64,000 bases of DNA from an uncultured Chloroflexia bacterium (GCA_963829485.1 CAWHIK010000007.1:135753-199752), one strand, 5' to 3'; numbered from the stretch's first letter, positions 25,696-44,441 are shown. Notes: generated from the sequence alone by a model not told the origin. Numbers and translations are program-made.

Positions 25696-25719
25696 ACCTT
25701 TCTGCTCAACTTAAATCAA

Positions 25720-25756: not shown

Positions 25757-25762
25757 GTTTAA

Positions 25763-27581: not shown

Positions 27582-27608
27582 CCACTTTAAATAATCCCTT
27601 TCTTATCG

Positions 27609-28832: not shown

Positions 28833-28923
28833 TTTTCCTCCATAGCGCAACTGATGGGATTATAACGATAGGCTATTATAAGTCCACTTTTAGGATGCTG
28901 TTTATCGAATTTACGCAAAATAA

Positions 28924-28963
28924 CAAAAAAAGTTTCAGTCATTTTGAGGATGACTGAAACTTT
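28924..28963 (-). terminator. Rho-independent terminator of the Vps62-like gene
   Basis: 14-bp perfect stem AAAGTTTCAGTCAT/ATGACTGAAACTTT followed on the minus strand by a T run. Confidence 0.8.
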
Positions 28964-28985
28964 GATAATCAAGTTTTTCACTCGA

Positions 28986-30824
28986 CTACCCCGTCAATTC
29001 CCTCAGCCTCTGCCACATCAGGAACACGCCCAGCGCCACCAGGCCGCCGACCAGGATCCAATCCCAGAAATGAATGAACAGGATAAGCGCGCTGACCAGT
29101 GCCAGCAGCAGCGTGATGCGCGTCATTGTTTCGATGAACGCCCCGCGCAGGATGGACTCGGCCAGCACGAACAGGATCATGATGATCATCAGTCCTGCCC
29201 AGATAAACGAAGGGGCAAAGAAAATCAATGCGGCGATGGCGAACAGCATCAGGCTCAGGCTGATCGCCGCCCAGGTCTCGGCGGCGCGGCCATAACGTAC
29301 ACGCATGGCGCGCACCGGCATAGCCAGATGATGGACATGAGCGCGAGGCTCATCCTGTATGCCAGCCTTCATCCGCCCAAGCCGCTGGGTCAATCCCTGC
29401 TGGAGCGCTCCGTTCTCAAGGCGTTCGCGACGAAGGTTTTTTACTTCTTCCGCCAGCGCATTAATTTTCTTTTCCAGTGCTGCATATTGTTTCGCCAAAT
29501 GCGGATTGCCTTCCATACCTTTCAATTTGATGCCCAGCGCCTGAAGTTCAGCCGCCTTCTTGGGGATCAGATTTTCGAGTTCACTCTGGCGGACAGTGAT
29601 CTCATCGCAATTCTTCTGGAGATATTCCAACGCCTGTGGAGGCGGAGGAATTTTATCCAGACCAGCGAAACCAAGCGGGTCGAACCACGAGCCGCGCGGC
29701 GAACCATCGCGGTTGTACATGGGTCCCGCCGGGGCGTTCTCGCCGGAGATGGGATCGCGCGCGAAAAGCCCCCACAACCCGCGGTACTGGCTCACCCACG
29801 GCGTGGATTCGTCGATCTGTACCGGCGTCCAGGCGTGTTTTTCACCCTGCCCGACCTTCATTCCATCGCCGCGGGCAAAATCGACGAACGGGATACGGAA
29901 CGGATTCCCCGCCGGCTGGTCCAGCACCTCGGTCCAGAACTTGTTCAATGCGCGGTTAATTCCGTTGACCCAGCCCGGCATCGGCAGCGTGACCTCGGCC
30001 TGGTATTCGCCGGGGCGGAAGTAGGAGGCGTGAGAGCCGGCGCCAGCGTAAATGACCGGATGCCCGTCAACAAAATCCAACTCCTCGAGATCGTCCCAGC
30101 GGCGGCGCAGGTCGTCCCCATGGAAGTCGTGCGAGGCGTAGGCTGCCCACTCGGGCACAAGCTGGCCTTCGTCCTCATACAGGTAGATACAGACGTTTTC
30201 CCAATCGGATTCGTGGTCGTTGACGCCGTGGAAGCCGGAGCGCCAGCTGTTGTAGCAGTAGAAATACCAGTACTGCAGCACGGTCCATCCGTTCTGGCGG
30301 ACGACGCGCCCATAATAGACGTATTTTTCATCCTGGTCATGCATGCGATTAAAAGCGAGCTCAGCCGCCGCGGCAGTAGCTGCCGACACTTTTCCACGCA
30401 GCAGGAAGGAGAGGGAGAACATGGCATCTGCCAGGCGAGGCAGGAATCCGCCTCGCGCCAACCTCCCCATGCCAACATGGAAGTAATTACCCAGCTTGCG
30501 CCGCAGCGAAGCCTGCTCGGTCAGAGCTATCGCGGCCTCGGAGAGCGTGAGCGTTTCAATAAAGCGGAGGAAGCGAACCGTGCCAAACACCGCCGGCCGC
30601 TGGTGGACCAGATTCTCGAGGGTCAGCTCACCCTGCTTGACCACGACCTCCTCGCGCCCGTCAGGGTAATGCGCCCACAGGCTGCACTCGCGCACATAAC
30701 GATCCACATCCATGGGGAAGAATTGTTCGCCTTTGGTAAAGCGTACGACCGGCTCGAACTGGCGCAGCAGGTCAAGGTCAGGGGTGCCAACGGGGACAGT
30801 GAAGCGATCAGGAGAGGAGTTCAC
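28986..30824 (-). CDS. Vps62-like (DUF946-type) domain protein with a coiled-coil and a C-terminal 4-TM module
   Basis: 612 aa. FFPMDVD, YWYFYCYNSW, HESDWENVCIYL and GSHASYF resemble the Vps62 family. A heptad-rich segment follows, then four hydrophobic helices. The GTG start overlaps the upstream gene by 17 nt. Confidence 0.7.
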   Translation of the reverse strand: MNSSPDRFTVPVGTPDLDLLRQFEPVVRFTKGEQFFPMDVDRYVRECSLWAHYPDGREEVVVKQGELTLENLVHQRPAVFGTVRFLRFIETLTLSEAAIALTEQASLRRKLGNYFHVGMGRLARGGFLPRLADAMFSLSFLLRGKVSAATAAAAELAFNRMHDQDEKYVYYGRVVRQNGWTVLQYWYFYCYNSWRSGFHGVNDHESDWENVCIYLYEDEGQLVPEWAAYASHDFHGDDLRRRWDDLEELDFVDGHPVIYAGAGSHASYFRPGEYQAEVTLPMPGWVNGINRALNKFWTEVLDQPAGNPFRIPFVDFARGDGMKVGQGEKHAWTPVQIDESTPWVSQYRGLWGLFARDPISGENAPAGPMYNRDGSPRGSWFDPLGFAGLDKIPPPPQALEYLQKNCDEITVRQSELENLIPKKAAELQALGIKLKGMEGNPHLAKQYAALEKKINALAEEVKNLRRERLENGALQQGLTQRLGRMKAGIQDEPRAHVHHLAMPVRAMRVRYGRAAETWAAISLSLMLFAIAALIFFAPSFIWAGLMIIMILFVLAESILRGAFIETMTRITLLLALVSALILFIHFWDWILVGGLVALGVFLMWQRLRELTG

Positions 30825-31269
30825 TGATGTCCGTCCTTATTCCAAAAATGCGTTGCACTTCCGCCTGGCTGAGCGCGAAGGCGATGACCACGTCCGAAGC
30901 CATGATGACGTAATTGGGCTGCCCAAAGTAAAAATAATCCACAAGGCCGACCACCATCGAAATTCCGACCCAGGTCATCAGCATGACCCAGCTCCAGCGT
31001 CGCATGCGCAGGAAACCGATCAGCACGATCACCAGGCCGATGGCGAGCGTAAAATAAAAGATGCTGTCGAGCAACGCCTGACCGGCATCGGTCAATTCCG
31101 TGCCAGTATAAAGCAGTTGACCGACGAAACCACCCTGGAATAATCCCATTTCATAAAGAGGCCTGAACACCTGAAACAGCCGGACGATGAACAGCACGAC
31201 GATGGCACCGCCGATGACGGTCACCGCGATGGGACGCTTCTTCCCTTTTGTCTTTTTCCGTTTAAACAT
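30808..31269 (-). CDS. Small polytopic membrane protein (153 aa), co-transcribed with the Vps62-like gene
   Basis: Basic N-terminus (KRKKTKGKKR) and hydrophobic helices. GGAGG RBS. Confidence 0.65.
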   Translation of the reverse strand: MFKRKKTKGKKRPIAVTVIGGAIVVLFIVRLFQVFRPLYEMGLFQGGFVGQLLYTGTELTDAGQALLDSIFYFTLAIGLVIVLIGFLRMRRWSWVMLMTWVGISMVVGLVDYFYFGQPNYVIMASDVVIAFALSQAEVQRIFGIRTDISELLS

Positions 31270-31304
31270 CTCACGCCTCCACGTTCTGCGGATTTGATAA
31301 ACAA

Positions 31305-31312
31305 ATTATACA
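31305..31312 (-). promoter_or_regulatory. Extended -10 box TGTATAAT
   Basis: Lies 36 nt upstream of ATG 31269 on the minus strand. Confidence 0.4.
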
Positions 31313-31331
31313 GCGGGCGATAAAATATAAA

Positions 31332-32132
31332 TCATTTCCCCAATACCAGTCCGGTCGGGTCGATCTCGTGCAGGACGCGTCGTTCCTCGTCCGTGGGTGG
31401 TGCGGTCACGGTGACATTCGCCGGGACAAGGATCTCAAACTCGCTGTTGGCCTGAACTTCGTCCACTGTGACGCCGGGGTGGAGGCTGAGCAGCATGAGT
31501 CGCTTGGATTCCTCGTCGAAGCCGTACACTCCCAACTGGGTGATCACCCGGTAGGGACCGCCCCCCGCGGGCAAGCCGGCTTCCTCGCGTTTGCCGGGTC
31601 CATCCAAATAACCGGGAGTAGTGAGGAAATCCAGTTTGTTCATAAAGGTGCGTTTGCTCTGCCCGCGCATGATGTACATCGTCCGCCAGCAAAATGAGCC
31701 GATGTCATTGGCGCCGCCCGAGCCGGGCAGTCGCGCTTTGGGCCTGGACCAGTCCCCGATGACGGTGGTATTGATGTTGCCATAGGCGTCCATGGCAGCT
31801 GCGCCGAGGAAGCCGTAGTCGATATAGCCCGCCTGAGCCGCGGACATGACATCGTGCATCGAGGATGCGGCCATCGCACGGTGGTAGGTGCGCGAATCGC
31901 CCACTGAGATGGGCAGCACCGGCACCTGCGGCCCCACCCCGCCAGCCTCGAAGATGATCAACATTTTCGGAGCATTGGTCCTCTGGGCAAGCATCGAGGC
32001 GATCATCGGCAGGCCGGTGCCCACAAAGACCGAGCGGTTGTCCTCCAGCAAGCGGGAGGCCACGCAGCACAGCAATTCCGCCAGAGTATAGCCGGCAGCA
32101 GGAGGAACAGCATCCACTTTGCGCATGGTCAT
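31332..32132 (-). CDS. CoA-transferase subunit B (glutaconate/3-oxoacid CoA-transferase family)
   Basis: 266 aa with family I CoA-transferase beta-subunit motifs (FEAGGVG, LPGSGGANDI). Confidence 0.85.
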   Translation of the reverse strand: MTMRKVDAVPPAAGYTLAELLCCVASRLLEDNRSVFVGTGLPMIASMLAQRTNAPKMLIIFEAGGVGPQVPVLPISVGDSRTYHRAMAASSMHDVMSAAQAGYIDYGFLGAAAMDAYGNINTTVIGDWSRPKARLPGSGGANDIGSFCWRTMYIMRGQSKRTFMNKLDFLTTPGYLDGPGKREEAGLPAGGGPYRVITQLGVYGFDEESKRLMLLSLHPGVTVDEVQANSEFEILVPANVTVTAPPTDEERRVLHEIDPTGLVLGK

Positions 32133-32141
32133 CCCCTCCCT

Positions 32142-33159
32142 TCATCTAGAGTCCGTCAGCGGCGACTGTAGTTGCTCGATCTGTTTAAGCCGCTCGAAGA
32201 GCTTCCTCCCGCCGACCTTTTCAAGATATTCATTGAAGTCTTTCACGCCGAAGACATACTTTTCGAAATACTCCTTCGCGCCGGCCTCTGTCTTCGATTG
32301 CTCCAGCCAGCCGCGGATGTGAGGTTCGTCGAAATAGTAAAGGTAGGGCATCTGGCTGGGATGCGCGCCGAAGGGCACCTCGCACACCGCGTCCACCACG
32401 TAAAAGGGGATGGCCGTCTGGCGCGGGTCGCGGCGGGTCTGTTCCTCGTCGATGACCTGCTCTGCCGTGACGATCACGCGCCGGGCAGCGCGCGCCAGTT
32501 CGAAGTCCTCCACAAGGATGCCGTCGATCTGGGCGTTGCCGTACTTGTCGCAGCGCGGCACATGGAACAGGGCCACGTCCGGGTAGGCCGCCGGCAGCAG
32601 GGTGACAGGCTTTGCCGCTCCACGGGTCGCGCACCTGCTTGGCGGAACTCTTCTCGAAGGTGTCGGTGCCGCCCAGGTTGCGCACGGCGATGAAAGGCAC
32701 GCCCATCATCCCCGCCAGGAAGCGCCACTGGTAGCCGGCGTTGGAAAGCTCGGCGACGACCTTCACCTGCCCGCTCTCGACCGCGCGCCGGCCGGAGGGC
32801 GAGAGTCCGCGCAGCTCGTGGCCGAAGGAGTAGGCGCACTCGACGCGGCTGACGCAGCCCGCGCCGATCAGCAGGTCGATGTCATGTACGGCGGTCTTGC
32901 CGGCGACGGCCAGGTCGCGCCGCCCCTGCCGGATGATCTCGTAGACGAGGCTCATCGGCACGCGGACGTGCCCGAATCCGCCGAACGCGATGTAGTCGCC
33001 GTCATGGACATACTCCGCCACCGCTTGCGCCACGCTCATGCGTTTGTCGATCAAGCCGCGCGGCTTGTGATCGCGGATCCAGGCGCGATTCTCGTCCGGG
33101 TCATGCCAGCCGAGCAGCTCGCCGCTGCCTTCTGCAAGGATTTCCATGGACTTGGTCAT
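32142..33159 (-). pseudogene. CoA-transferase subunit A; frame broken near 32606-32616 as assembled
   Basis: ORF 32230..33162 (N-terminal, ...FEKSSAKQVRDPWSGK) continues as PVTLLPAAYPDVALFHVPRCDKYGNAQIDG in ORF 32142..32576. The break is at a short homopolymer. AAGGAGG RBS before ATG 33159. Confidence 0.8.
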
Positions 33160-33185
33160 CAAGCCTCCTTGGGAATGGTGAATCC

Positions 33186-33226
33186 ATTATACGGCAAGTG
33201 CCTCAGAGCGATTCACTCTGAGGCAC
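33186..33226 (-). promoter_or_regulatory. Palindrome + -10 module, copy 1 (GTGCCTCAGAG-N7-CTCTGAGGCAC then TTGCCGTATAAT)
   Basis: 11-bp arms at 33198-33226 and TATAAT at 33186-33191, 27 nt upstream of ATG 33159. Two further copies lie at 40692-40731 and 43351-43391. Confidence 0.5.
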
Positions 33227-33246
33227 CAGGTTTGTTTCAATCTTGA

Positions 33247-34980
33247 TTATTCGGTCGGGCAGACAGGAGCAAGCGGGACTGAGATCTGCTCCAAAAATTT
33301 CTCATCCCATTTTCTTTCCGCACACTCCGGGAGATCATAGACTCCCGCCATGAATTCGGCCGAGCTCATGACCAACCCAGTTGCATCCGGATCCTTCGAA
33401 ATCAGGACATTGCTGCCTTCCCATTCCGCCGTTTCACCGGGGGCGACGCGAAATCCTCCCATCCAGTCAAAATCTTCGGTGCCTGCGTAAACATCCGCAT
33501 GATATTGATTAATGAGATAAAACACGGAATGATCAGCGTCCGTGTTGGTGATCTCAAGCTTATAATCACACGACCGCGAGCCGAATTCGTCGACGATTTC
33601 CTGACGGGTGATCACACCTTTGACTTGAAGCGCTGAAGTCCCATCACAAACTTGGCGGTCGGCATCCCCTGAATCTTTCTCCTCATCGGGCTCCTGGGTG
33701 TTTCTGATCGCGGCGACGGCAGTGGCCACGGCAGGCTGGCTTTCCATGATTTCATCTGTAAGGTCCCCGGCCAGTTGTTCGGCGGTCTCCTCGTCAAGAT
33801 CGGGCATGGCGCTCATCAGGTCCTGTTGAATCCTGTCAGCGATTTCGCTTTTAATCTCATCAACGGACATGTCGACCAAGGTCCCAAGCGGGTTGACATA
33901 CATGTTATTGACAAATTCCGCCCATTCGGAGGCTTTGTCCGCATACTCAAACCCCTGTTGGATCTCCGGGAATGCCGCGGTCAGGGTTTCCTTGACGATC
34001 TCGAATTCCAACTCGGCCCCGCGCTGGAGCAGCTCTGTGCCAACCCGATGGGTGGTTTCGCCGCCCGGACGGTTCGATTCCTGGAATACGGTCTGATAAA
34101 CACCCTGATAAGGACCTCCGGTGTACAGGTCGCTGCGTATACCGGTAACATCCCCCAACTGACCATCCTGGAGGAGCTGCAGGAATTCATCGTAATTCTG
34201 CGCTCCGCCGCGATTTTTATCATCAAGCCAGTAGAAAGCATCTTCTTTCTCTTCCGGAGTCATGGCTGCGGAAACGAATAGAATTTCCTCCCTGGCTTTC
34301 TCATCTTCCTCATTTTTGAATGTGAAGAATTGCTCCAGTGAATCCCAGATGCCTGAGAGATTCCGCGGCAGCGCAGCGCTGGCCAGCTTTCCATCGCCGC
34401 CCCGGGAATCCGAAGCGGCTTGCTGCATCCGTACTTCCAATGCCTGGGCAGCGGCGCGAACCGCTTCCTTCTGATCTGAGATACTCTGCAAACGGGCATA
34501 AAGCGCGTCCACATCGCTCATTTGTATGATATCGATGGAATCCTTAAACGTGCGCTGAAATCCGTTCGAAGCGGTTTCCAGATAAGTCAGTTGTGCAAGA
34601 TCAACCAATAGCATGAAATTCGCCAGGGTTTTCAATTGAGATGCAATCGCTTCATCAGGCCTGCCTCCACCTCTTACCTGCAGGCGGATGGGGACCGAGT
34701 TGCCACTGCCCTGAGCCGGCTCGACGACTTCACGCCAGCTTCCATAGACCAGCCCTTCCGGGCTGACGGCCTCCATGTAGTATTCACCGGCCGGAAGCCG
34801 GAATCGATCAGATTGGGGATTCCCGACATACAGCGCCAGGGATGGAATCCCTTCATAGTTCATTGCGACAACGATCACAGGACCAACGGGTTTTGGGAGG
34901 CTGCAAGACAACGAGGCTGAAACCAGAACCGACACGCACAGCAATAAACGGACCATGAGCTTGAGCTTTGTCTTCATCAA
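33247..34980 (-). CDS. Orphan lipoprotein (577 aa), function unknown
   Basis: Signal/lipobox SLSCS, an acidic helical central region and a Cys-containing C-terminal domain. No family recognised. Confidence 0.65.
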   Translation of the reverse strand: MMKTKLKLMVRLLLCVSVLVSASLSCSLPKPVGPVIVVAMNYEGIPSLALYVGNPQSDRFRLPAGEYYMEAVSPEGLVYGSWREVVEPAQGSGNSVPIRLQVRGGGRPDEAIASQLKTLANFMLLVDLAQLTYLETASNGFQRTFKDSIDIIQMSDVDALYARLQSISDQKEAVRAAAQALEVRMQQAASDSRGGDGKLASAALPRNLSGIWDSLEQFFTFKNEEDEKAREEILFVSAAMTPEEKEDAFYWLDDKNRGGAQNYDEFLQLLQDGQLGDVTGIRSDLYTGGPYQGVYQTVFQESNRPGGETTHRVGTELLQRGAELEFEIVKETLTAAFPEIQQGFEYADKASEWAEFVNNMYVNPLGTLVDMSVDEIKSEIADRIQQDLMSAMPDLDEETAEQLAGDLTDEIMESQPAVATAVAAIRNTQEPDEEKDSGDADRQVCDGTSALQVKGVITRQEIVDEFGSRSCDYKLEITNTDADHSVFYLINQYHADVYAGTEDFDWMGGFRVAPGETAEWEGSNVLISKDPDATGLVMSSAEFMAGVYDLPECAERKWDEKFLEQISVPLAPVCPTE

Positions 34981-35090
34981 TTCACTTGTCCTTTCGGATC
35001 CATCAGGGAATCCAATGTTGATAAAGATTTACTCGGCTATGTCAATGATCTTTTCCTCATTTGATATCCAGAATCTGGTCAATCCCGGCA

Positions 35091-36359
35091 TTAGTTCTCA
35101 TCCACCTCGCACCAACTAGCTGCAAGGTTGGCAAGCACTTTAGTGCAAGAGAGGACCTGCTCAAATTCCACGTATTCATCCACACAATGCACCATCCCGC
35201 CGCGAGGACCGTAAATTACCGCGGGCGTATTGCCATACAGAACAGGCAGGCGCAGGTCGCAGCCGCCTCCCCCTCCGATGATGGGAGCATGTCCGATCAC
35301 CTGCTCGATCTCGCGCGCAGCCGCCAGCACCAGCGGATGGTCGAGACTCACCTCGGCGCTCTCCAGCCTCAGTCCCCACCATTCCACCTCGATGGGATGC
35401 TCCGCGAACCAGGCATCCTGTAAGCCCAAAGCCGAGAGATAATTTTTGAAACCGTTCTTTATCATTTCGATGTCCTCACCCGGCAGTGCCTCGATGGACC
35501 CTTCCAAGTAACAGGCTGAAGGGATGGTCGAAGCCCACTCCCCGCCGTGAATCTTGCAGATGGCCAGCGGCACCTTGACCTTGTAATAGGGGTCATAAAG
35601 CGGGTGTGAAACGGTCGACTCGCGCCAAAGCGAATAGGCTTCCACAGCCTGGTAGACCTGCAGCGCCTTGCCGATCGGGTTGACCAGGTCGTATCGGCCC
35701 TCGATCGATCCTTCAACACCGGTAATTTTCAAGCGGAAGAATTGCGCGCCGCGCTGGGCAATTCCGAGGGCAAAATCCCCGCTCGGTTCGCTGAACACCA
35801 TACCATCGCCGGTGTAACCGCGCAACACGCATGCCAGCGTCCCATTGCCGCCGTTCTCTTCGTCCACCACCGACTCCAAAACCACATCACCCTTGAGTTT
35901 CACACCGGCTTTCTGCAGGGCCTTGACGACCATCAGGTTGACCACGCAGCCGGCTTTCATGTCGGCGGACCCGCGGCCATATACTTTTCCGTCCTCGAAA
36001 TCGCCGCTCCAGGGCGAGTGAGTCCATTTTGCTTCCTCGCCGGTGGGCACTACATCGACGTGACCGTTGAAGATCAACTTTCTGCCTCCGCCTGTGCCTT
36101 TCCAGGTACCGACGACGTTCGGACGCCCGGTGTAGGGAATCTCACTGGGCACGTAAGCCGGGTGGGATTGAAGCTCCGGGTCCACCGGGTCCCAGATATC
36201 CAACTCCAGGGTCATCTTCTTCATCTCGCTTGCGATGATATCCTGAACGCCCTTTTCCCTGCCCGGCAGGGTCGGAATCCTCACCAGGGTTTGCAGCAGG
36301 GCAAGCGCTTCTGCGCGCAGGCCTTCCACTGCTTGATCGATCCGTTCCCGAGTTGCCAT
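35091..36359 (-). CDS. M20-family metallopeptidase/deacylase (ArgE/DapE-like)
   Basis: HVDVVP, GRGSADMKAG and DEENGGNG metal-ligand motifs. Confidence 0.85.
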   Translation of the reverse strand: MATRERIDQAVEGLRAEALALLQTLVRIPTLPGREKGVQDIIASEMKKMTLELDIWDPVDPELQSHPAYVPSEIPYTGRPNVVGTWKGTGGGRKLIFNGHVDVVPTGEEAKWTHSPWSGDFEDGKVYGRGSADMKAGCVVNLMVVKALQKAGVKLKGDVVLESVVDEENGGNGTLACVLRGYTGDGMVFSEPSGDFALGIAQRGAQFFRLKITGVEGSIEGRYDLVNPIGKALQVYQAVEAYSLWRESTVSHPLYDPYYKVKVPLAICKIHGGEWASTIPSACYLEGSIEALPGEDIEMIKNGFKNYLSALGLQDAWFAEHPIEVEWWGLRLESAEVSLDHPLVLAAAREIEQVIGHAPIIGGGGGCDLRLPVLYGNTPAVIYGPRGGMVHCVDEYVEFEQVLSCTKVLANLAASWCEVDEN

Positions 36360-36371
36360 TTTTCTCTCTCC

Positions 36372-37793
36372 TTATTCGTTGACCATCTGCGCTGCCGTCT
36401 CGAGGGCCATTCCCGTCGCGTCCTGTTCGAGGGCGTTCATGATGGTCTCGTATTTAAACTCTGCGCCATCTTCCGCAAAATTACTGATGTGAGGCAGATA
36501 GCCCAAAAAACCATTGGACAGACCGATGACAAACGCCTTCTCGCCCTGTGGAGCATTACGTTCCTGCCAGTCCCGTCCGACTTCCACCAGGGCTTCGCCG
36601 GGCAATGTCATCAAACGATAATCATTCACTTCGATGGTCTGCACTGGAAATGACATTTGCTTTTTGAACGCCGGGTTTGCCAACTTCATGGCCATCATGA
36701 GGAATGTGGAAACTGCCGACATCAACCGCCGCATATCGGACTCATCCATATCCTTTTCAATCACCACGGCCGACGCATCCCGCCAGAGGGTGAAGACAGG
36801 CTTCAGGTTGAGAGGCGATGCCTTGCGGAATTCCGGCAGATATTCCAGGATGATGCGGCGCTGGGCAAGCAGCTGTTTCCACGCCACGAACATTCCCAGA
36901 TTGGTCCGGGTTGGCTTAGCGGTGATGGTGCACTTGTCCACTCGCAGGCGCGTAAGCGGCTGGTGTGCGGTGGACCTCAAACTCCGCGCCACCTCTGTGC
37001 CGAGGGCTGTACCTATTTTTTCTGCGTCCTCGAAGGAGCCGCCCAGGTAGCCGCGCGTATCCAGCGAGTTGTAGAGCGGACGGGTATTGGGGATGACATT
37101 GCCCTCGGTCAGGTTGACGAACAACGCATTCCGGGCTCCGAGCTGCTGTTCGACAACGCGCTGCGCAACACCCGGGTAATCGGCGCTGATCAGCAAATTG
37201 TCGTGCCCCAGGCAGACGGCATGGCATCCCACGCCGAACAACACCGCCAGCGGACGCTCTGTTTCGATCTCGTCCACCTCGAGCGCAAGCACACGCCTAT
37301 CCACCAGGTTATCCGCTCCCCTCTGGCGGCGGTTGACGAGGAAATCCACCTGCCCGACCGCTAATTTCAGTTTCACTTCGACGGTCTTATCACACGCCTG
37401 CTTCCCCACATTGACCAGATTCTTCACCAGCCGGTCAAGGTAATCCCGTACCGGCGCGGCAATGATCAGGCTTTCTTCCACATCCGGCCCGGAATGGGTA
37501 TGCGAGGCGGACATACACAAGCCGGTTTCATCGATCTCCCCTGCGCCGGTCAGGGCAGCGAGAACCTGAGTGTAGATTCCGACCGGCAGCGAAATCAGAT
37601 CAGCGGTGATGAAAAGCAGGCGCTCTCTGCCATCGGTCAGGAAAAGCGCCTTGGCAAAAAGCGGATCGTGCACCCCGAGGCTGGTCTGTTCCGCACGCTG
37701 ACCATACCCGCCCATGCTGATCGGATCAACGGGAGTGATCTCCACCCTGGATGTCCCGGCAAATAACCTCGCCGGGAGTCCATCAAGATTCAT
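36372..37793 (-). CDS. Neutral/alkaline ceramidase-like amidase
   Basis: N-terminal ITP...MGGYG...GVHDPLFAKA and SHTHSGPD motifs typical of the non-lysosomal ceramidase N-domain. Confidence 0.75.
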   Translation of the reverse strand: MNLDGLPARLFAGTSRVEITPVDPISMGGYGQRAEQTSLGVHDPLFAKALFLTDGRERLLFITADLISLPVGIYTQVLAALTGAGEIDETGLCMSASHTHSGPDVEESLIIAAPVRDYLDRLVKNLVNVGKQACDKTVEVKLKLAVGQVDFLVNRRQRGADNLVDRRVLALEVDEIETERPLAVLFGVGCHAVCLGHDNLLISADYPGVAQRVVEQQLGARNALFVNLTEGNVIPNTRPLYNSLDTRGYLGGSFEDAEKIGTALGTEVARSLRSTAHQPLTRLRVDKCTITAKPTRTNLGMFVAWKQLLAQRRIILEYLPEFRKASPLNLKPVFTLWRDASAVVIEKDMDESDMRRLMSAVSTFLMMAMKLANPAFKKQMSFPVQTIEVNDYRLMTLPGEALVEVGRDWQERNAPQGEKAFVIGLSNGFLGYLPHISNFAEDGAEFKYETIMNALEQDATGMALETAAQMVNE

Positions 37794-39127
37794 GCTCCGC
37801 TCTCATTCTCCAATACATATTGCTTGACTTCCTCCGGGGTATCGCCCAGCTTGTAATTTCGGAAGAAGAACAAACCGATCATGACCAGGAGCCCCATGAC
37901 CAGAAAAGCCAAGCGGATGCCCATCGGGTTGGCGAGTGAATATCCAAAATTCTGGTATAGGATCGGCAACAGCAGGACAGCGATAGCCGGTCCGCCTTCC
38001 ACCGCGAGGGAAAAGGCGCCGTAGTAAATGGCCTCTCGGCGGGTCTTGGTTTTAATCTCATCGTAATCCGCGACCGAGCCCATCATGGCATAGGGGAGCA
38101 TCGAGCTGCCTGCCAGCATGAAGCCGAGCGCCATGAAGATCGCAAAAGTCATGATCGTGGCGGGTGTTCCCGGGATGCTTCCAATCAGGAATCCGGCAGC
38201 GTATATGACGCCCAGGATAATGGTGGCCGTCTGCCAGACCTTCCGGTTCAGTCGTTTTCGACCGATCCTGTTCCAGAAGATGGCTGCAAATGCCATCACC
38301 AGGATCACAACCCCCATGACGATGGAAACAAAATCGGTTGGCATTCCCAGAACCTGGGTCACAAAATAAGGCAGGTTTACGACCAGCATCCCGTATGCAG
38401 ATTGAACGAACAGGATAGCGAGGAAGAGGTGTAAGAATTGTCGGTTCTTGAAGGTTGCCATCAAGCTCTTTGTAACCGGAAGTGGTTCACCCAGCTCTTC
38501 GCTTTTCTTCTCTCTTAGTCCAAGCAGCGTCAGCACGCCTCCGATCAATGCGGCGATCCCAACAACAATCCCCATCCCCCGGGGTCCGAACGCAGAGTTA
38601 TAGAGGATACCGGAGGCGAGTGCGCCAACCAGCACGCCCACCAGGGCGAACACATTCTTCCAGGCAGCCAGGGTAACCCGGTCCTTCGGGTCATCCGCCA
38701 TTTCAGGCAGGGCCGCGTCATATGGGATCTGCCAGGCGCTCTGAGCACCGTAAAAGGCGACAGTGATGACTAGAAAATAAATGATATTTGCTGTGGAGGC
38801 ATACTGGTCTGGGGGGGTCCAGATCAAGATCAAAGCCAATACAGATAAGGGAAGGAAGACCAAGATAAATGGTCTTCGCCTACCCAGTCTGCCGCGGCGG
38901 GTATCGCTCCAGTGCCCGAGGAAGGGGTCGATTACTGCATTGACAATACTTCCGACCGCCATCAGGATCCCGATTATTGCCAGGGGGACAAGGTTCGGAC
39001 GGCCCGAGTCGGGCGGGGGTGCGTAGGTGAACATCAACCAGGTGGATACTGTGATCGCCATGATATTGGTGCTGATGGATGCCGAGCTGAAGAGCAACAT
39101 CCGGCCGGTGGAAAGTTTCGCGCTCAT
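37790..39127 (-). CDS. GPH-family (MelB-like, MFS_2) glycoside/cation symporter
   Basis: 445 aa, 12 TM helices, DPFLGHWSDTRRGRLGRRRPF motif. 4-nt overlap with the downstream gene. Confidence 0.85.
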   Translation of the reverse strand: MSAKLSTGRMLLFSSASISTNIMAITVSTWLMFTYAPPPDSGRPNLVPLAIIGILMAVGSIVNAVIDPFLGHWSDTRRGRLGRRRPFILVFLPLSVLALILIWTPPDQYASTANIIYFLVITVAFYGAQSAWQIPYDAALPEMADDPKDRVTLAAWKNVFALVGVLVGALASGILYNSAFGPRGMGIVVGIAALIGGVLTLLGLREKKSEELGEPLPVTKSLMATFKNRQFLHLFLAILFVQSAYGMLVVNLPYFVTQVLGMPTDFVSIVMGVVILVMAFAAIFWNRIGRKRLNRKVWQTATIILGVIYAAGFLIGSIPGTPATIMTFAIFMALGFMLAGSSMLPYAMMGSVADYDEIKTKTRREAIYYGAFSLAVEGGPAIAVLLLPILYQNFGYSLANPMGIRLAFLVMGLLVMIGLFFFRNYKLGDTPEEVKQYVLENESGA

Positions 39128-39201
39128 GTTGTATGTCTCCTGTAATCGTTGGATGAATTGAGAATGGCGGAATGAATGCGATCGATGTTGGCAAATTGAC
39201 G

Positions 39202-40512
39202 TTAACGCACCTCCGCTTTCACCTCGCGAGCCGCCTCGAGGATTTTCCCGACTGCACTGTCAAGGGTCTCGTTGTCGTGCTGCGCAGAGACCGTAAAATC
39301 CGTATGAAAATACAGTCCCTTCTGAATGCATTTATTGAAAAGTGATTTTGCCATTGCAGGATTGAGCTTGTCGAAATCCTTGTACTGCGTCACCGGTTCG
39401 CGCGTTCCTACATAGATGAAGAAATTACAGCCCAGGTGCTGCACTCGGGCGGTGAAACCTTCGTCATCGAATCCGGATTGGAGACTGTCGGTGAAACGAT
39501 CCACTTGTTCCAGCCAGGATTCAAAAAATCCCGGCTCTTCCATGATTCGAAGCGCAGCCAGGCCGGCTGCACATCCCATCAGGTTTCCTGAGAAAGTTCC
39601 GCCCGCAACAACAGGATCTACAGGATCCATGATTTTTGACAGGATTTTTTTCTTTCCCGCGATCGCAGCCAGCGGCACTCCATTGGTAAGCGCCTTGCCC
39701 AGCAGGCACAGATCCGGCGTTACGCCATAATACCCCTGCCCGCACGAGATGCCTGTGCGGAATCCTGAAAGTATTTCATCCATAATGAAAACAATCCCGT
39801 GAAGGTCACAGACTTCTCGGATTTTTTGAAGGTACTCGGTGGTTGTCCCCATACAGCCATTGTTGTAATCAATCGGATTCATGATAATTGCTGCGATTTC
39901 ATGGCCTTTTTCTTTGGCCAGCTTTTCGAACACATCAGGCCGGTTCCAGGGAATTACATAAAGCGTTTCCTTAATAACGTCAGGGATACCAGAAGAAAGG
40001 TGGCCAATTTTTGATATTCGATTTCCAGGATTTCCCCGGTCAATTTTCGAAGCCAGATTATTCGCAAGCGCATAATCATGCCCGCCGTGAAAATGACCGT
40101 CAATTCTTACAACCTTGCTTCGCCCTGTATAGCCCCTTGCCAGGCGCATGGCCAATAAAGTGCCTTCGCTTCCGGAGTTGACGTACCGCACTTGTTCTGC
40201 GCAAGGAACATGCTGGACGATTTTTCTGGCAAGTTCAACAGTTAACGAGTGATCGTACTCCGCAAAAAAACCAAGGTTTAACGCATCTGTGATTGCTTCG
40301 CGAATCTCCGGTCGGTTATGCCCCAGCGGGCACGCGCCGTGGCCCATAAAGAAGTCCACATAATGGCGGCCAGCGAGGTCATATATGGATGATCCATCCG
40401 CCCTGCTGAGGTACATGGGCTGGCCCGTGTAGGGATTGATCCGAAAGCTTGACGACACGCCTCCCACCAGGAACTTTTCAGCCTCATTTTTAAATTCGTC
40501 AATCACAAGCAT
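39202..40512 (-). CDS. Class III (PLP) aminotransferase, glutamate-1-semialdehyde-aminomutase-like
   Basis: SGSEGTLLAMRLAR, DEILSGFR and the GKALTNG lysine motif. AAGGAGA RBS. Confidence 0.9.
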   Translation of the reverse strand: MLVIDEFKNEAEKFLVGGVSSSFRINPYTGQPMYLSRADGSSIYDLAGRHYVDFFMGHGACPLGHNRPEIREAITDALNLGFFAEYDHSLTVELARKIVQHVPCAEQVRYVNSGSEGTLLAMRLARGYTGRSKVVRIDGHFHGGHDYALANNLASKIDRGNPGNRISKIGHLSSGIPDVIKETLYVIPWNRPDVFEKLAKEKGHEIAAIIMNPIDYNNGCMGTTTEYLQKIREVCDLHGIVFIMDEILSGFRTGISCGQGYYGVTPDLCLLGKALTNGVPLAAIAGKKKILSKIMDPVDPVVAGGTFSGNLMGCAAGLAALRIMEEPGFFESWLEQVDRFTDSLQSGFDDEGFTARVQHLGCNFFIYVGTREPVTQYKDFDKLNPAMAKSLFNKCIQKGLYFHTDFTVSAQHDNETLDSAVGKILEAAREVKAEVR

Positions 40513-40534
40513 TTTGGGATTCTCCTTTTATACA

Positions 40535-40565
40535 ATTATGTCATAAACGACGATTCCAAATCGTC
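40535..40565 (-). promoter_or_regulatory. Small hairpin (40549-40565) followed by a CATAAT -10-like box (40535-40540) proximal to the aminotransferase gene
   Basis: GACGATT-TGG-AATCGTC then GTTTATGACATAAT on the minus strand, the same layout as the repeats at 59.5-63.2 kb. Confidence 0.35.
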
Positions 40566-40590
40566 AAAAACAAAAATAGCCGTGCGGATA

Positions 40591-40665
40591 TCAACATTGC
40601 GCGTGGACCATTTTTCCGAGCAGCTCGCCGCTGCCTTCTACAAGGATTTCCATAGACTTGGTCAT
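40591..40665 (-). other. 24-codon remnant ORF created by duplication of the CoA-transferase A 5' end (MTKSMEILVEGSGELLGKMVHAQC*)
   Basis: Part of the 117-nt block 40616-40731, which is homologous to 33110-33226. It retains the AAGGAG RBS. Confidence 0.5.
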
Positions 40666-40691
40666 CGGCTCTCCTTGGGAATGATTAAATC

Positions 40692-40731
40692 ATTCTATGG
40701 CAAGTGCCTCAGAGCGATTCATCTGAGGCAC
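40692..40731 (-). promoter_or_regulatory. Palindrome + -10 module, copy 2 (degenerate: TAGAAT, right arm 1 nt shorter)
   Basis: GTGCCTCAGA...TCTGAGGCAC at 40704-40731 and TAGAAT at 40692-40697. Confidence 0.45.
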
Positions 40732-40756
40732 ACTTTATACTCCGTATAACGATCGA

Positions 40757-41917
40757 CTATTTTCCATCGCGGATGATCGTCCCGTTATGGATGACCATGC
40801 GGATGCTTGCCAGGTTTTGCAGGTCTTCCAACGGATTTCCCGAAACAACCAAAACATCGGCGATCTTTCCAGCTTCAAGCGTCCCCGCCTCGTCTTCGAT
40901 ACCCAGCACGTGCGCGGCATTCTTCGTGGACGCAAGGATGATCTGCATGGGCGTCATCCCTGCTGCGGACATCTGCTCGATCTCGTACATCGGGATTCCC
41001 AGCTCGAATTTACCCGGACCTCCCCCGTAGTCATTGCCGAGAGCCACTTGCCCGCCCTGTTCAACAAAATTACGGAGATTGAGTACGCACGTGCTGATCG
41101 GCGCGCCGTAATTCTTGAAGACGGTAAAGGTTGGGGTCATGTAGATGCCCTTCGCCACCATTTCCCGCCAGGTTTCATCAGACACTACGTCATATGTGAT
41201 GTGGGCAATATCATCCACACCGGCTTCCACCAAAATCTCGAGGTACTCAACCTGTGTGATGTGCCCTGATACCAAAGCCCCGCGTTCGTGCGATGCGGAA
41301 ATGATGGCATCCAGTTCCTCATCGGTCAGCTTGGGCAAGCCGGACTGCCCGGCATAACCATCCTCCATCGAAAGCTTGATCATGTCCACGCCGGCGTCCA
41401 ACTGCTCGAATACTTTCCGGCGCGCTTCTTCAGGTGAGGCAACAAACAACTCGCCGTATCCGTCGGGGACGGTCATCATATAGCCGGCTGAGATGAGGCG
41501 CGCATTCATCGGATCCAAAGCAGCTGAATCGCGAAAGGCTATCAGCTCCTCCAGTGATTCGTCCGAGAGAATCGACTCGTCGCGCACCGTGGTGACTCCA
41601 CCGTAAGCCCAGGCCTGCAAGTTCTCCTCATTAAAACCAAAGTGGACATGGGCATTGATAAAGCCGGGCAGGATGGTATTTCCCTTCAGGTCAATGACAC
41701 GCGCCCCTCGAGGGATCTCGACCTCGTCCTTGGAACCAACCGCTACAATCCGCTCGCCTTTGATGATCAGAACAGCATCGGGAATCGGTTCCGCTCCGGT
41801 GCCATCAACCAATGTGCCGTTAACCAGCGCCAGCGTGTCCAGATCTGGCGCAGAAAGAGAGCAACCGGTCAGAAATAAGATAACGACCATGAAAAGGATT
41901 ATTTTTCGGATTAACAT
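40757..41917 (-). CDS. Secreted/lipoprotein amidohydrolase-family metallohydrolase
   Basis: Lipobox LTGCS and the HxH motif (FINAHVHF). GGAG RBS before ATG 41917; the alternative GTG 41953 overlaps the upstream gene. Confidence 0.85.
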   Translation of the reverse strand: MLIRKIILFMVVILFLTGCSLSAPDLDTLALVNGTLVDGTGAEPIPDAVLIIKGERIVAVGSKDEVEIPRGARVIDLKGNTILPGFINAHVHFGFNEENLQAWAYGGVTTVRDESILSDESLEELIAFRDSAALDPMNARLISAGYMMTVPDGYGELFVASPEEARRKVFEQLDAGVDMIKLSMEDGYAGQSGLPKLTDEELDAIISASHERGALVSGHITQVEYLEILVEAGVDDIAHITYDVVSDETWREMVAKGIYMTPTFTVFKNYGAPISTCVLNLRNFVEQGGQVALGNDYGGGPGKFELGIPMYEIEQMSAAGMTPMQIILASTKNAAHVLGIEDEAGTLEAGKIADVLVVSGNPLEDLQNLASIRMVIHNGTIIRDGK

Positions 41918-41942
41918 AAGTCTCCGGCAAGACACCACAAAG

Positions 41943-43293
41943 TTACCTCGCACAGACTTCCTCGATCACATTCCACAGCACGGGCAGGCCGCTCTCGATA
42001 AAGGATACCGGCAGGCGCTCGTCGTGCCCGTGGCCGAGAGACACAGTAGGAAACTCGGGAGGCAGCATGCCGGGCGTGAACCCGTAAGTCTGGATGCCGG
42101 CCTTCTGGTACTGCGACGCGTCCGTCGCGCCGGGCATCATCAGCGGGACGATCAATCCCTCCGTGTCCATCTTGCGGGTGCAGCGCTCCAGCGTTTTGTA
42201 GAGTGGCGACTCGGCGGACACCTGAGCCCCGTCCGAGGTTTGGAGCGGTTCAAATGTAAAGCCCTCCCCCACGATGGCTTTGATCTCGCGAATCACATCC
42301 TCCACCGACTGACCGGGCAGCTTGCGGCAATCGAGGTGCACTTCCGCCGTGGAAGGGATGACGTTGGTTTTTGAGCCGGCCTGCAACACCGTCGGCGTGC
42401 ATGTGTTGGTCGTCAAAGCCGTCAGGATGGAACCACCTGTGCCCTTGATCCTCGGCAAGGCAAGATTGACCGCGGCCGGGCTGCCCATCAGACCGACCAG
42501 CATCTTCAAGGGCCAACGGACCTGCCCCGAGGCGGATTTCAACATGCTGCGGAAAGTGGGCGTGATGTGCACCGGTAAATGGCCGGCTTTGCGGATGCGC
42601 TCGATGGCCTGCGCCAAATGCAGCACGGCATTGTCCCTATGCGGCAGGGACGCGTGCCCGGGCTTGCCGCTGGCGGTCATGCGCAGCCAGCAGACACCCT
42701 TTTCCGCCACCTGGATCATGTAAGCCTTCGTCTTCCCAAAGTAGAGCGTCATCGCGCCGCCCTCGGTCAGCGCATATTCGGCGTCGATCAGATCGTGGTG
42801 TTGCTCGGTCAGGAACTGCGAGCCATGGGTGAAACCAGCCTCCTCGTCGGCGATCGCCGCCAGGATCAAATCGCGCTTGAGGGGCAAGCCGCGCCGGCTT
42901 CACCTGCAGGAAGATCTGCAGGTACATCGAGAGGAAGCCCTTCATGTCGAGGGCGCCGCGCCCCCACACCTCGCCATTGATCACCTCGCCGCCGAAGGGA
43001 TCGTGAGTCCAGCGCTCGCGCTCCACCGGCACCACGTCCACATGACCGGAGAGCAGTAGCGGTCGCTGTGACCCGTCGCCTCGCAGGCGGGCCACCAGAT
43101 TCACCCGTCCCGGTGCAGACTCGAGGATCTTGAAGTCCTCGCTGCCAAATCCCTCGCGCTCGAGGATTTCCTTGACCACCCGGATGGCGGGCTCCTCGTT
43201 CCCCGGCGGGTTGACCGTCTCAGCGCGGATCAAGCGGGAAAGGTGACCTACGGTCTCGTCGGTTGCGGATTTCCAGTTGATGGGTTCAGGCAT
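41943..43293 (-). pseudogene. M20-family metallopeptidase; frame broken near 42888-42900 as assembled
   Basis: ORF 42637..43293 (HVDVVPV, GRGALDMKG ... LQVK) continues in ORF 41943..42887 (GLPLKRDLILAAIADEEAG...). An extra C in a CC run would explain the break. Confidence 0.8.
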
Positions 43294-43350
43294 GGCTGCT
43301 CATCTCCAGTGCAGGAAAATCTTGGCTATCTATGAAAATGTCACTAATCC

Positions 43351-43391
43351 ATTATACGGCAAGTGTCTCAGAGCGAATCGCTCTGAGACAC
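43351..43391 (-). promoter_or_regulatory. Palindrome + -10 module, copy 3 (GTGTCTCAGAGCG-AAT-CGCTCTGAGACAC then TTGCCGTATAAT)
   Basis: 13-bp arms at 43363-43391 carrying a compensatory C>T / G>A pair relative to copy 1. TATAAT at 43351-43356. Confidence 0.5.
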
Positions 43392-43433
43392 GGGAGATAA
43401 AATTACGATTTGGGGCTGCCCTGATAGAAACTA

Positions 43434-44084
43434 TTACTCCAGCCAGCCTCTGCCAATGTCAGCCGCCTGCTGGCGAAAGAAAGCCTTTACCATTTCCCAT
43501 TCCAGCGGCTCAAGCATATCAGGTGGTTCATCCTGCTCGGCGCGCTCGAAGTAGACAAGCCGCTTCACCGCCTGTGCCTCAAAATCACGAACACCGGGGT
43601 ACTTCTGCGGCGCCAGACGCAACAATTCCCGCAGAGGTCTGCGCTGGCAAATGGCATACAGGTCGTAAAAATCCTTGCGGGCAGCACGGGCAAGCAGCGC
43701 ATCCAGCTTCATCAAGGCGATGTCTGCGACACTGGCAAGTTTTATCCCTTCAATGTCGACCAGGGGCTCAACAAGGTCATACCCATATCCATGGAAACCC
43801 GTTCGAATCCCCCTTGCGACGTAGACCAGACTGCCCCATGCCGAATCCGCCAGAATAGGCTCAAAGGAGGCGAGCGACTGCAGTAAAGGTTCTTTAATGG
43901 ATGGGATGTCTTCAGTGGGCGAAAAATAATCCAGGTCTACGGACCTGCGATGTCCGAGCTGCAGCGCCAGCGCTGTACCTCCGGCGAGATAAAACCGTTT
44001 GCCGATATCCGTCTGCGAAAAGGCGGACGCGATCTCGCGCATTCCGGGGGAAACAGTCTCCCAGAAAATATCAGGCATCGTCAT
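43434..44084 (-). CDS. AbiEii/AbiGii-family nucleotidyltransferase toxin (type IV TA)
   Basis: FYLAGGTALALQLGHRRSVDLDYF motif. ATG 44084 overlaps the upstream stop as ATGA. Confidence 0.8.
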   Translation of the reverse strand: MTMPDIFWETVSPGMREIASAFSQTDIGKRFYLAGGTALALQLGHRRSVDLDYFSPTEDIPSIKEPLLQSLASFEPILADSAWGSLVYVARGIRTGFHGYGYDLVEPLVDIEGIKLASVADIALMKLDALLARAARKDFYDLYAICQRRPLRELLRLAPQKYPGVRDFEAQAVKRLVYFERAEQDEPPDMLEPLEWEMVKAFFRQQAADIGRGWLE

Positions 44085-44329
44085 GCATCCAGCAGGAATT
44101 TCCAGAAGGTGAGATGCGGCTCCGGCAGGCGCTCCGGACCGGACCCGCTCAACCAATCCAGGATTTGTTTGCGCGGATAGCGTCCGAACAGCCAGCGGAT
44201 CTCTTCCCGGTTGCCGAACTGCAATGTGCGCTCAATGACGGTCGATGCCGCGCGGTCAGAGTCGAGATCGCTCAGGGAATACTCTTGAAAAAAAGGCGCG
44301 AGGGTTTGGGGAATGGCTGTCATTGGCAT
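44081..44329 (-). CDS. Small partner protein of the AbiEii-type toxin (putative antitoxin, DUF6922-like)
   Basis: 82 aa (FFQEYSLSDLD...VIERTLQFGNREEIRWLF). Translationally coupled to the toxin. The family name is from memory. Confidence 0.6.
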   Translation of the reverse strand: MPMTAIPQTLAPFFQEYSLSDLDSDRAASTVIERTLQFGNREEIRWLFGRYPRKQILDWLSGSGPERLPEPHLTFWKFLLDA

Positions 44330-44404
44330 GGTTTCATCTTACAACACCCATTTGAATGCTGCAAGACCCGAATAAGTTTTACTGATTAACCGGCAAGTCA
44401 TAAA

Positions 44405-44431
44405 GCAGGTCACGCATGAAGCGTGACCTGC
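44405..44431 (-). terminator. Hairpin terminator after the SBP gene
   Basis: GCAGGTCACGC-N5-GCGTGACCTGC, an 11-bp perfect stem 11 nt after the stop. Confidence 0.6.
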
Positions 44432-44441
44432 CCGGTGTGCA

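Follow-up and report, generated by a model that had tools for sequence, protein, structure and literature searches.

In a 64,000-nt stretch of DNA from an uncultured Chloroflexia bacterium (the window, on which all positions given here are based), the island at 31,332-43,293 is best read as a mosaic peculiar to this strain, lying in a variable region of an Anaerolineales-like Chloroflexota genome, and not as one inherited pathway. It contains a cassette of four genes, for a class-III aminotransferase, an MFS_2 symporter, a short neutral-ceramidase homologue that we call CerL and an M20 deacylase, which may act on an N-acylated amino sugar or polyol. We put the probability of this reading at about one half. 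A first-pass annotation of the same DNA had taken the island for a single functional unit, a view that our analysis supports in part. The source assembly consists of 10 contigs (3.72 Mb, 92% complete) and is compared below with G001, a genome of the same genus.

Pfam and NCBIfam profile searches find nine minus-strand open reading frames (ORFs) at the coordinates below, with the domain assignments holding, and agree with the gene content first described for the island: a glycoside-type transporter, several amide hydrolases, a transaminase and a CoA-transferase. The gene coordinates and a 4-nt overlap at 37790-37793 also stand; the intactness of the genes does not, as frame breaks near 32605 and 42885 had been missed.

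43351-43391, minus strand: promoter copy 3, 5' of the PRK07906-type M20 gene (palindrome, TATAAT)
41943-43293, minus strand: unit 1a, cytoplasmic M20 metallopeptidase of the PRK07906 type (Pfam Peptidase_M20 and M20_dimer; G001 orthologue 93-95% identical)
40757-41953, minus strand: unit 1b, lipoprotein amidohydrolase with an LTGC lipobox (Pfam Amidohydro_1, E 1.3e-32; 80% identical to the G001 protein)
40591-40731, minus strand: promoter copy 2 with a 5' remnant of CoA-transferase A, the head of the cassette (direct repeat, G001 alignment)
39202-40512, minus strand: cassette gene 1, class-III aminotransferase resembling glutamate-1-semialdehyde (GSA) aminomutase (Pfam Aminotran_3, E 2.6e-61)
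37790-39127, minus strand: cassette gene 2, MFS_2 symporter of the GPH superfamily (Pfam MFS_2, E 3e-56, 191 bits vs a cut-off of 27)
36372-37793, minus strand: cassette gene 3, CerL, short (473 aa) cytoplasmic homologue of the neutral-ceramidase catalytic domain (Pfam Ceramidase_alk, fold)
35091-36359, minus strand: cassette gene 4, M20 deacylase of the ArgE/DapE family (TIGR01910, 253 bits vs a cut-off of 217.6)
33247-34980, minus strand: 577-aa secreted protein or lipoprotein with a signal peptide (no family match)
33186-33226, minus strand: promoter copy 1 (ancestral), 5' of CoA-transferase A (palindrome, TTGCCG, TATAAT)
32142-33159, minus strand: unit 3a, CoA-transferase subunit A, glutaconate/3-oxoacid type, frame-broken near 32605 (Pfam CoA_trans profile positions 2-134 of 217, then frame lost)
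31332-32132, minus strand: unit 3b, CoA-transferase subunit B (Pfam CoA_trans, E 1e-26)

The cassette as an insertion in a variable region

By blastn, window positions 24445-33226 and 40757-43294 are collinear with G001 at 82-85% identity, and positions 33227-40615, which hold the 577-aa protein, M20, CerL, MFS_2 and aminotransferase genes, have no counterpart there. A metagenome contig carrying an 86%-identical homologue of the 577-aa protein has the gene order Amidohydro-577-aa-CoA_trans A-CoA_trans B-152aa-612aa-411aa-AzlD-AzlC, which is the window's order minus the four-gene block. Because G001 and this contig both keep the surrounding order without it, the aminotransferase-MFS_2-CerL-M20 block (~35091-40731, ~5.6 kb) is, on comparison of gene order, an insertion. 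It entered between the amidohydrolase and 577-aa genes and is headed by a duplicated CoA-transferase promoter. The 577-aa protein itself appears to be part of an older, genus-level block outside the cassette. It had been called an orphan, and it indeed matches no Pfam or NCBIfam family, but it has 11 metagenomic homologues. The amidohydrolase was sought in 150 other genomes of the order, none of which gave a match at E<=1e-60.

At the site of the cassette and the 577-aa gene, G001 has instead two HicA/HicB-like genes (products of 84 and 109 aa; L064 11288-12024, at ~601.3-602.0 kb on G001:C8). Window positions 43295-48071 are also absent from G001 and form a second strain-specific insertion. 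It encodes an AbiEii toxin and its small partner, together with an SBP_bac_5 lipoprotein of 711 aa and a Peptidase_MA_2 protein of 515 aa. At its end lies promoter copy 3, by which the PRK07906-type M20 gene is then driven. Toxin-antitoxin pairs mark the cassette site as a variable hotspot in both genomes.

A duplicated promoter shared by the three units

The shared cis element described in the first-pass annotation is real, with three palindrome copies in the window. It consists of a 29-nt perfect palindrome, GTGCCTCAGAG-N7-CTCTGAGGCAC, followed by TTGCCG and TATAAT. Copy 1, 5' of CoA-transferase A, lies at 33198-33226 with TTGCCGTATAAT after it and TATAAT at 33186-33191. In copy 3, 5' of the PRK07906-type M20 gene (43363-43391, again with TTGCCGTATAAT after it; TATAAT at 43351-43356), the palindrome carries a symmetric C>T/G>A double change. 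Copy 2, 5' of the aminotransferase (40704-40731), has a 1-nt deletion, a -10 of TAGAAT at 40692-40697 and an AAGGAG ribosome-binding site (RBS).

The sequence 3' of promoter copy 2 still holds a 24-codon remnant ORF of CoA-transferase A (40665-40591). A direct repeat, D1, pairs 33110-33215 with 40616-40721 at 89% identity, and the full duplicate, 117 nt at 88-89% identity, comprises the CoA-transferase promoter, its RBS and the first 17 codons. In G001 the same element stands 5' of CoA-transferase A; its 117-nt promoter block matches both window copies by blastn, and promoter copies 1 and 2 align to that single G001 site. These alignments indicate that the shared element arose through local duplication, and they make the window a case of promoter capture by means of a duplicated promoter-plus-coding fragment. 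As a sign of joint action, which is how the element had first been taken, it would hold for co-regulation in this strain, acting through the palindrome, and not for one ancestral pathway.

The 21-nt core of the palindrome, at <=2 mismatches, has only two full-length copies in the 3.72-Mb genome (reversed control, 0). A gapped genome search recovers the third, 1-nt-deleted copy too, and apart from one diverged copy at C7:~211.6 kb there is otherwise no close match. The palindrome alone is specific, because the TTGCCGTATAAT part recurs at unrelated promoters on contigs C1, C2 and C7, and we therefore rejected the whole promoter module as evidence of a regulon. Among all loci fetched from other genomes, none has the palindrome 5' of a cassette, and only the G001 CoA-transferase site carries it.

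The centre of the palindrome lies ~33 nt 5' of the expected start site, a position that would suit a repressor site overlapping the weak -35. A search of the 10 flanking ORFs for a local regulator of the palindrome found no DNA-binding domain (MFS, AzlC/D, AbiEii, SBP_bac_5 and Peptidase_MA_2 were found). A consensus promoter/terminator scan made no call of the TATAAT promoters, whose -35 is weak, and flagged the palindromes as terminator-like on the non-coding strand only. Since every copy follows the upstream gene's stop codon at a distance of 20-42 nt and forms a highly stable hairpin (copy 1, -26.3 kcal/mol, z -5.5; copy 2, -18 kcal/mol; copy 3, -25.4 kcal/mol, z -6.4), the palindrome could also be a terminator that lacks a U-tract.

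Two further promoter cores lie beyond the window on contig C7. One, at C7:~211573, ~12 kb past the window end, joins a CACTTGCCGTATAATGGATT core to a palindrome that has diverged, GTGCCTCAGATCTCATAGGTCTGGGGCAC, and precedes an NmrA/epimerase-like gene; the other, at C7:~210586, ~10 kb past the window end, is a CACTTGCCGTATAATGGATT core in front of a gene for a small lipoprotein. It looks as if the promoter module has spread locally along C7.

Conservation of the cassette in other Chloroflexota

The claim that the island's genes act together as one unit largely failed the neighbourhood check, in which the three units proved not to be co-conserved. By tblastn, the cassette genes lie next to one another in seven Chloroflexota contigs (L015, L017, L018, L021, L022, L024 and L102), with identities of 69-78% for the aminotransferase (in L015, L018, L021 and L022), 67-89% for MFS_2, 54-71% for CerL and 59-89% for the M20 enzyme (85-89% in five orthologous contigs and 59% in a sixth). 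The 4-nt overlap (ATGA) of the MFS_2 and CerL genes, by which the two appear to be translationally coupled, recurs in six of the seven orthologous contigs with both genes; the contig of P0016 has a 30-nt gap. The amidohydrolase, the second M20 and the 577-aa protein are missing from all seven cassette loci. The CoA-transferase likewise has its own company: its orthologues in other families of the order (64-80% identical) adjoin thiolase-like genes, ChsH2-type OB/zinc-ribbon (DUF35) genes and either a beta-keto acid cleavage enzyme (BKACE) or a short-chain dehydrogenase/reductase (SDR) gene, and are never beside the amidohydrolase, the second M20 or the cassette.

The genes that do accompany the cassette are of another kind. 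In every contig with upstream sequence, a gene for an Fe-ADH_2 resembling glycerol or glycerol-1-phosphate (G1P) dehydrogenase lies beside it, and the surroundings elsewhere include LacI or ROK regulators, substrate-binding proteins (SBP), permeases, glycoside hydrolases of families GH1 and GH4, GFO_IDH_MocA (GFO), PIG-L, DegT, YdjC, a BadF-type ATPase and AP_endonuc_2. Fe-ADH_2 and GFO directly flank the cassette in L018. The source genome has its own Fe-ADH_2 at C8:123852-124809, directly before GFO and within an SBP-permease-GH1-GH4 cluster. Gene order across these contigs identifies aminotransferase-MFS_2-CerL-M20, together with the Fe-ADH_2 that is here on another contig, as the only co-conserved set, and indicates that the cassette is horizontally mobile and has moved as a unit away from its usual sugar cluster. 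The window is in this sense a clean natural experiment. A search of 60 relatives for CerL orthologues gave only N-terminal matches of 26-36% identity and no cassette, even in same-genus genomes; full-length homologues at 40-80% identity occur in metagenomes.

The sugar cluster of the source genome at C8:115023-130785 is the counterpart of the L018 cluster without the cassette. It holds SBP, permeases, a 460-aa protein, GH1, GH4, a His-rich 362-aa protein (MSHEHDHHEHEHEHDHE), Fe-ADH_2 and GFO, and further a split pair of ORFs (124 and 280 aa), a 235-aa ORF, a second GH4 and DegT; several of these genes are frame-broken. At C10:273993-277473 the same genome encodes an MFS_2 (46% identical to the L018 carrier), a CerL paralogue (27-35%) and a frame-broken PIG-L (72-80%), a module that parallels the second MFS_2/CerL-like/DegT/PIG-L module of L021. 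The P0016 contig (JGI 3300075153, 19.4 kb), with a CerL orthologue of 63% identity and its MFS_2 partner, offers a lipid-flavoured setting unlike the sugar clusters: its neighbours are a B12-radical-SAM enzyme, a PPDK/Rph-like protein, a BtaA-like DUF3419 protein and an AMP-binding enzyme.

CerL is a predicted zinc amidase

Pfam Ceramidase_alk matches CerL at 64.1 bits (cut-off, 32.1), over residues 13-237 and profile positions 4-258 of 509 only. A family-profile search of the PDB matches CerL only to the neutral ceramidases 2ZWS (PaCD) and 4WGK (human ASAH2). The structure-prediction check proposed in the first-pass annotation gave the same answer, a neutral-ceramidase fold and nothing else: the AlphaFold2 model (pLDDT 82) has Foldseek matches to neutral ceramidases only (TMq 0.64-0.68, TMt 0.49-0.50).

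Residues H98, H100, R155/156, H191, E400, Y432 and Y448 are invariant in 16 CerL homologues. The corresponding motifs (SHTHSGP, the GCH histidine, LPGE and two tyrosines) align to 2ZWS and 4WGK, at residues which we take to be the PaCD/ASAH2 zinc ligands (two His, Glu and Tyr) and catalytic His, Arg and Tyr. CerL is therefore predicted to be a zinc amidase with the full catalytic set kept. It shares the catalytic-domain fold of the neutral ceramidases (PaCD 2ZWS/2ZXC, ASAH2 4WGK; PF04734), with no other significant fold in the PDB, at a sequence identity of 16-17%. In contrast to these enzymes of ~640-690 aa, which have a C-terminal beta-domain, CerL has 473 aa and lacks the beta-sandwich, with no Pfam match in that part and partial target coverage in Foldseek. 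Its N-terminus, MNLDGLPARLFAGTSRVEITP, has no hydrophobic signal segment. Unlike neutral ceramidases, it is coupled to a transporter and found in sugar-catabolic contexts; the likeness is one of sequence and fold. For annotators, the label 'neutral ceramidase' on bacterial proteins of 400-480 aa is no evidence of sphingolipid metabolism.

Partners of CerL across phyla

The CerL family comprises 2,187 clusters at 50% identity (E<=1e-30), mostly of 390-480 aa. We counted the genes within 6 kb of CerL at 35 non-redundant loci from four phyla: PIG-L is present at 17 of the 35, Fe-ADH_2 at 15, DegT and MFS_2 at 8 each, M20 at 7 and a class-III aminotransferase at 5. In Alphaproteobacteria the PIG-L gene overlaps the CerL-like gene. 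Across phyla CerL and Fe-ADH_2 are constant, the second deacylase is M20 or PIG-L, and the aminotransferase is of class III, DegT or PALP type. This pattern points to one chemical logic, consisting of two N-deacylations, one deamination and one carbonyl reduction. Deltaproteobacterial and several other CerL homologues (L019/L025-L027, L103 and L104) had no conserved partners, and an NCBIfam scan of the partner enzymes of other phyla returned only sub-threshold IolG, G1P dehydrogenase, LegC/PseC and BshB.

The CerL/Fe-ADH_2/aminotransferase association is a reproducible, uncharacterised set in metagenome-assembled genomes of Chloroflexota, Actinomycetota, Proteobacteria and Firmicutes; none of the genome matches used comes from a cultured isolate. 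It points to a part of amino-sugar turnover, and possibly of glycolipid turnover, that present knowledge of communities in sludge, soil and sediment does not cover. Literature searches on bacterial PF04734, on ceramidases together with aminotransferase and MFS genes or with LmbE, and on ceramidase-like proteins with glucosamine returned nothing relevant; the set is undescribed there.

A model for the cassette

On the best reading, the cassette probably takes up an N-acylated amino sugar or polyol, N-deacylates it and deaminates it; the families and neighbours of its genes suggest both the substrate class and the order of steps. Expression would be driven by the duplicated copy of the CoA-transferase promoter, palindrome included. 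The MFS_2 symporter would import an N-acylated amino sugar, amino-glycoside or amino-polyol, and its N-acyl groups would be removed by the coupled CerL amidase and the M20 enzyme. The GSA-like class-III enzyme, dependent on pyridoxal phosphate, could then remove (transaminate) or shift the freed amine; an open-chain amino sugar would present an alpha-amino aldehyde, like GSA itself. The resulting carbonyl would be reduced by Fe-ADH_2, encoded on another contig beside GFO, GH1 and GH4, and the product would enter ordinary sugar catabolism, where GH and GFO enzymes may finish the route. Outside the cassette, the genus-level unit 1 (cytoplasmic M20, lipoprotein amidohydrolase and 577-aa secreted protein) may serve generic peptide or N-acyl-amino-acid scavenging, and the CoA-transferase A/B pair would be of the beta-keto-acid type and, in other genomes, a partner of thiolase/DUF35/BKACE genes.

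Two known types of gene set resemble this arrangement. The E. coli chb operon contains ChbG, a YdjC-type deacetylase, and ChbF (GH4), and the archaeal route uses a PIG-L diacetylchitobiose deacetylase. The logic is the same, from glycoside import through cytoplasmic N-acyl removal to cleavage and metabolism, and the larger cassette-bearing clusters hold YdjC, PIG-L and GH4 genes. Unlike these routes, the cassette has a ceramidase homologue and an M20 enzyme as deacylases, an additional class-III aminotransferase and glycerol-dehydrogenase-like enzyme, and no phosphotransferase system. Aminoglycoside pathways use a PIG-L 2'-N-acetylparomamine deacetylase, a GSA-like class-III 6'-aminotransferase and DegT aminotransferases. 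They share with the CerL sets PIG-L, DegT, a GSA-like class-III aminotransferase and a dehydrogenase that makes or removes a carbonyl, whereas the cassette contexts are catabolic (LacI/ROK, SBP/permeases, GH1/GH4) and lack glycosyltransferases or cyclases. The aminoglycoside C-6' aminotransferase 7LLD is a weak match to the cassette enzyme (E 1.6e-31), whose best PDB matches are GSA aminomutases (E ~1e-70).

More speculatively, and with considerable doubt, the short cytoplasmic CerL homologues (~2,200 clusters) might form a new class of transporter-coupled N-deacylases for amino sugars with acyl groups other than acetyl, for example N-(3-hydroxyacyl)-glucosamine from lipid A or O-antigens. With the aminotransferase and the glycerol-dehydrogenase-like enzyme they would make up a new cross-phylum route to ordinary sugars, and the wiring of the cassette to the promoter of a beta-keto-acid CoA-transferase would reflect use of the released hydroxy-acid.

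Several points weigh against the amino-sugar model and the mosaic around it. The closest solved structure to the transporter in the PDB search is MFSD2A (90 bits), ahead of MelB (60 bits); its best solved relatives are thus lysolipid symporters, not sugar carriers, and a lipid-like substrate would fit too. None of the enzymes reaches an NCBIfam equivalog, and there is no characterised member in the CerL family, the cassette M20 clade or the aminotransferase clade; the first-pass remark that no described pathway matches is in line with this, as with the literature. The identical promoter/operator on all three units leaves room for a functional link between cassette and CoA-transferase, and so do the L020/L028 loci, in which CerL-like genes lie beside CoA_trans A/B (38-43% identical), SDR and SIS-protein genes. 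Two of the nine genes are frame-broken, and if the breaks are real, parts of the mosaic would be dead.

Alternative readings

Salvage of an amphiphilic lipid is unlikely. The substrate would be a ceramide or sphingoid base, an N-acyl-serinol, a lyso-aminolipid or a lipid-A-derived N-acyl-glucosamine, which the MFSD2A-like symporter would flip in; CerL would cut off the fatty acid, and the transaminase and glycerol-dehydrogenase-like enzyme would convert a 2-amino-1,3-diol head group. Ceramidases are the only structural relatives of CerL, with the full catalytic set kept; the carrier scores best on MFSD2A, a lysophosphatidylcholine symporter; a GSA-like aminotransferase and a glycerol/G1P-dehydrogenase-like Fe-ADH_2 would suit amino-diol chemistry; and one CerL orthologue adjoins DUF3419 (BtaA-like) and AMP-binding genes. 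However, the recurrent neighbours are sugar enzymes and regulators (GH1, GH4, GFO, PIG-L, DegT, YdjC, ROK, LacI and the BadF-type ATPase), the cassette has no conserved association with genes for fatty-acid activation or beta-oxidation, and CerL has neither the C-terminal domain nor the secretion signal that true ceramidases possess. MFSD2A performs lysolipid symport; in the LplT-Aas system, LplT is an MFS_1 protein and Aas an acyltransferase. As in these systems, the cassette couples an MFS carrier tightly to a cytoplasmic acyl-processing enzyme, a likeness drawn from the genes alone, and LplT and Aas differ from the cassette proteins in family.

One integrated pathway, as first proposed, is rather unlikely. 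Its hydrolases would free an acid and an amine, the transaminase would take the amine, and the CoA-transferase would activate the released hydroxy or oxo acid. The same palindrome and -10 stand before all three units, in perfect or near-perfect form only at these sites genome-wide, and L020/L028 bring three CerL-like genes together with PIG-L, SDR, CoA_trans A/B and a SIS protein. Against this, the three units are not co-conserved, the shared element goes back to a recent local duplication in which 17 codons of coding sequence were copied along, the closer CoA-transferase orthologues (64-80% identical) occur in thiolase/DUF35/BKACE settings, and the L020 CoA-transferase is a paralogue of only 38-43% identity.

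We consider it improbable that the region is decaying, with CoA-transferase A and the PRK07906-type M20 truly broken, so that two of the three units would be pseudogenised and the cassette alone functional. Both genes are indeed split in two frames and intact in G001. The M20 gene breaks near 42885: ORF 42637-43293 matches PRK07906 positions 11-144 and a second frame, ORF 41943-42887, matches positions 144-440 (NCBIfam). CoA-transferase A changes frame near 32605, so that the listed ORF ends in Arg/Pro-rich nonsense; its true C-terminus runs down to 32142 and matches the intact 342-aa G001 orthologue, which contains DPWSGKPVTLLPAAYPDV. Neither break lies in a long homopolymer. Yet frame breaks affect 6 of ~25 inspected genes of this assembly (SBP, permease, Fe-ADH_2 and PIG-L are also split), a rate that fits assembly indels better than biology, and beyond the single shift both genes are 90-95% identical to the G001 proteins, with stop-free corrected frames. 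Because breaks are so common across the assembly, those in the island are probably assembly indels.

Salvage of muropeptides or peptides, in which a glycopeptide fragment would be imported, CerL would cut the sugar-peptide bond, the M20 would trim a DAP/ornithine-type peptide and neighbouring peptidases, SBP_bac_5 and an MA-clan protease would supply and finish peptides, is very improbable: the cassette M20 belongs to the ArgE/DapE family, the flanks are peptide-oriented (SBP_bac_5, Peptidase_MA_2, amidohydrolase and second M20) and the larger clusters hold YdjC, GH4 and BadF-type kinase genes, families likened to chitobiose and N-acetylmuramic acid use, but no MurQ-, NagZ- or AmpD-type genes were seen in conserved contexts, and the peptide-oriented neighbours are strain-specific insertions or genus-level genes unlinked to the cassette elsewhere.

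Family assignments and further observations

Several narrower assignments were tried and rejected. The aminotransferase falls short of HemL, glutamate-1-semialdehyde 2,1-aminomutase (TIGR00713, 325 bits vs a cut-off of 527), and the MFS_2 carrier falls short of the GPH symporters of TIGR00792 (139 vs 231) and far under the cut-offs for the MelB, YagG and glucuronide equivalogs. The cassette M20, which carries both the catalytic Peptidase_M20 and the dimerisation M20_dimer domain and belongs to the TIGR01910 subfamily, stays below PRK06915 (378 vs 428) and below both the ArgE and DapE equivalogs. The amidohydrolase is not the Xaa-Pro dipeptidase of NF051886, a Caulobacter model (145 vs 500); its true start is likely at ~41917, at MLIRK.

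The CoA-transferase pair resembles the CoA-transferases of 3-oxoacid/glutaconate type (ScoA/B, PcaIJ, AtoDA and GctAB) in being a two-subunit CoA_trans enzyme in coupled A-B order, and it has orthologues that adjoin thiolases and a beta-keto acid cleavage enzyme. It differs in its long A subunit (342 aa) and in scoring far under PcaIJ/ScoAB (TIGR02428/02429, 27-30 bits vs cut-offs of 128-243); it matches the general Pfam CoA_trans only.

Two genomes of the order Anaerolineales have three CerL-like paralogues close together (L005/L012, at G049:C1 ~2.582-2.587 Mb, and L020/L028). In L020 there are ORFs between them, and they occur with PIG-L, Zn-ADH, SDR, CoA_trans A/B and a SIS protein. Within the window, G+C content drops to 0.52 at 38001-42000, against 0.57-0.60 in the flanks, a dip that takes in the amidohydrolase gene as well as the cassette's 5' half.

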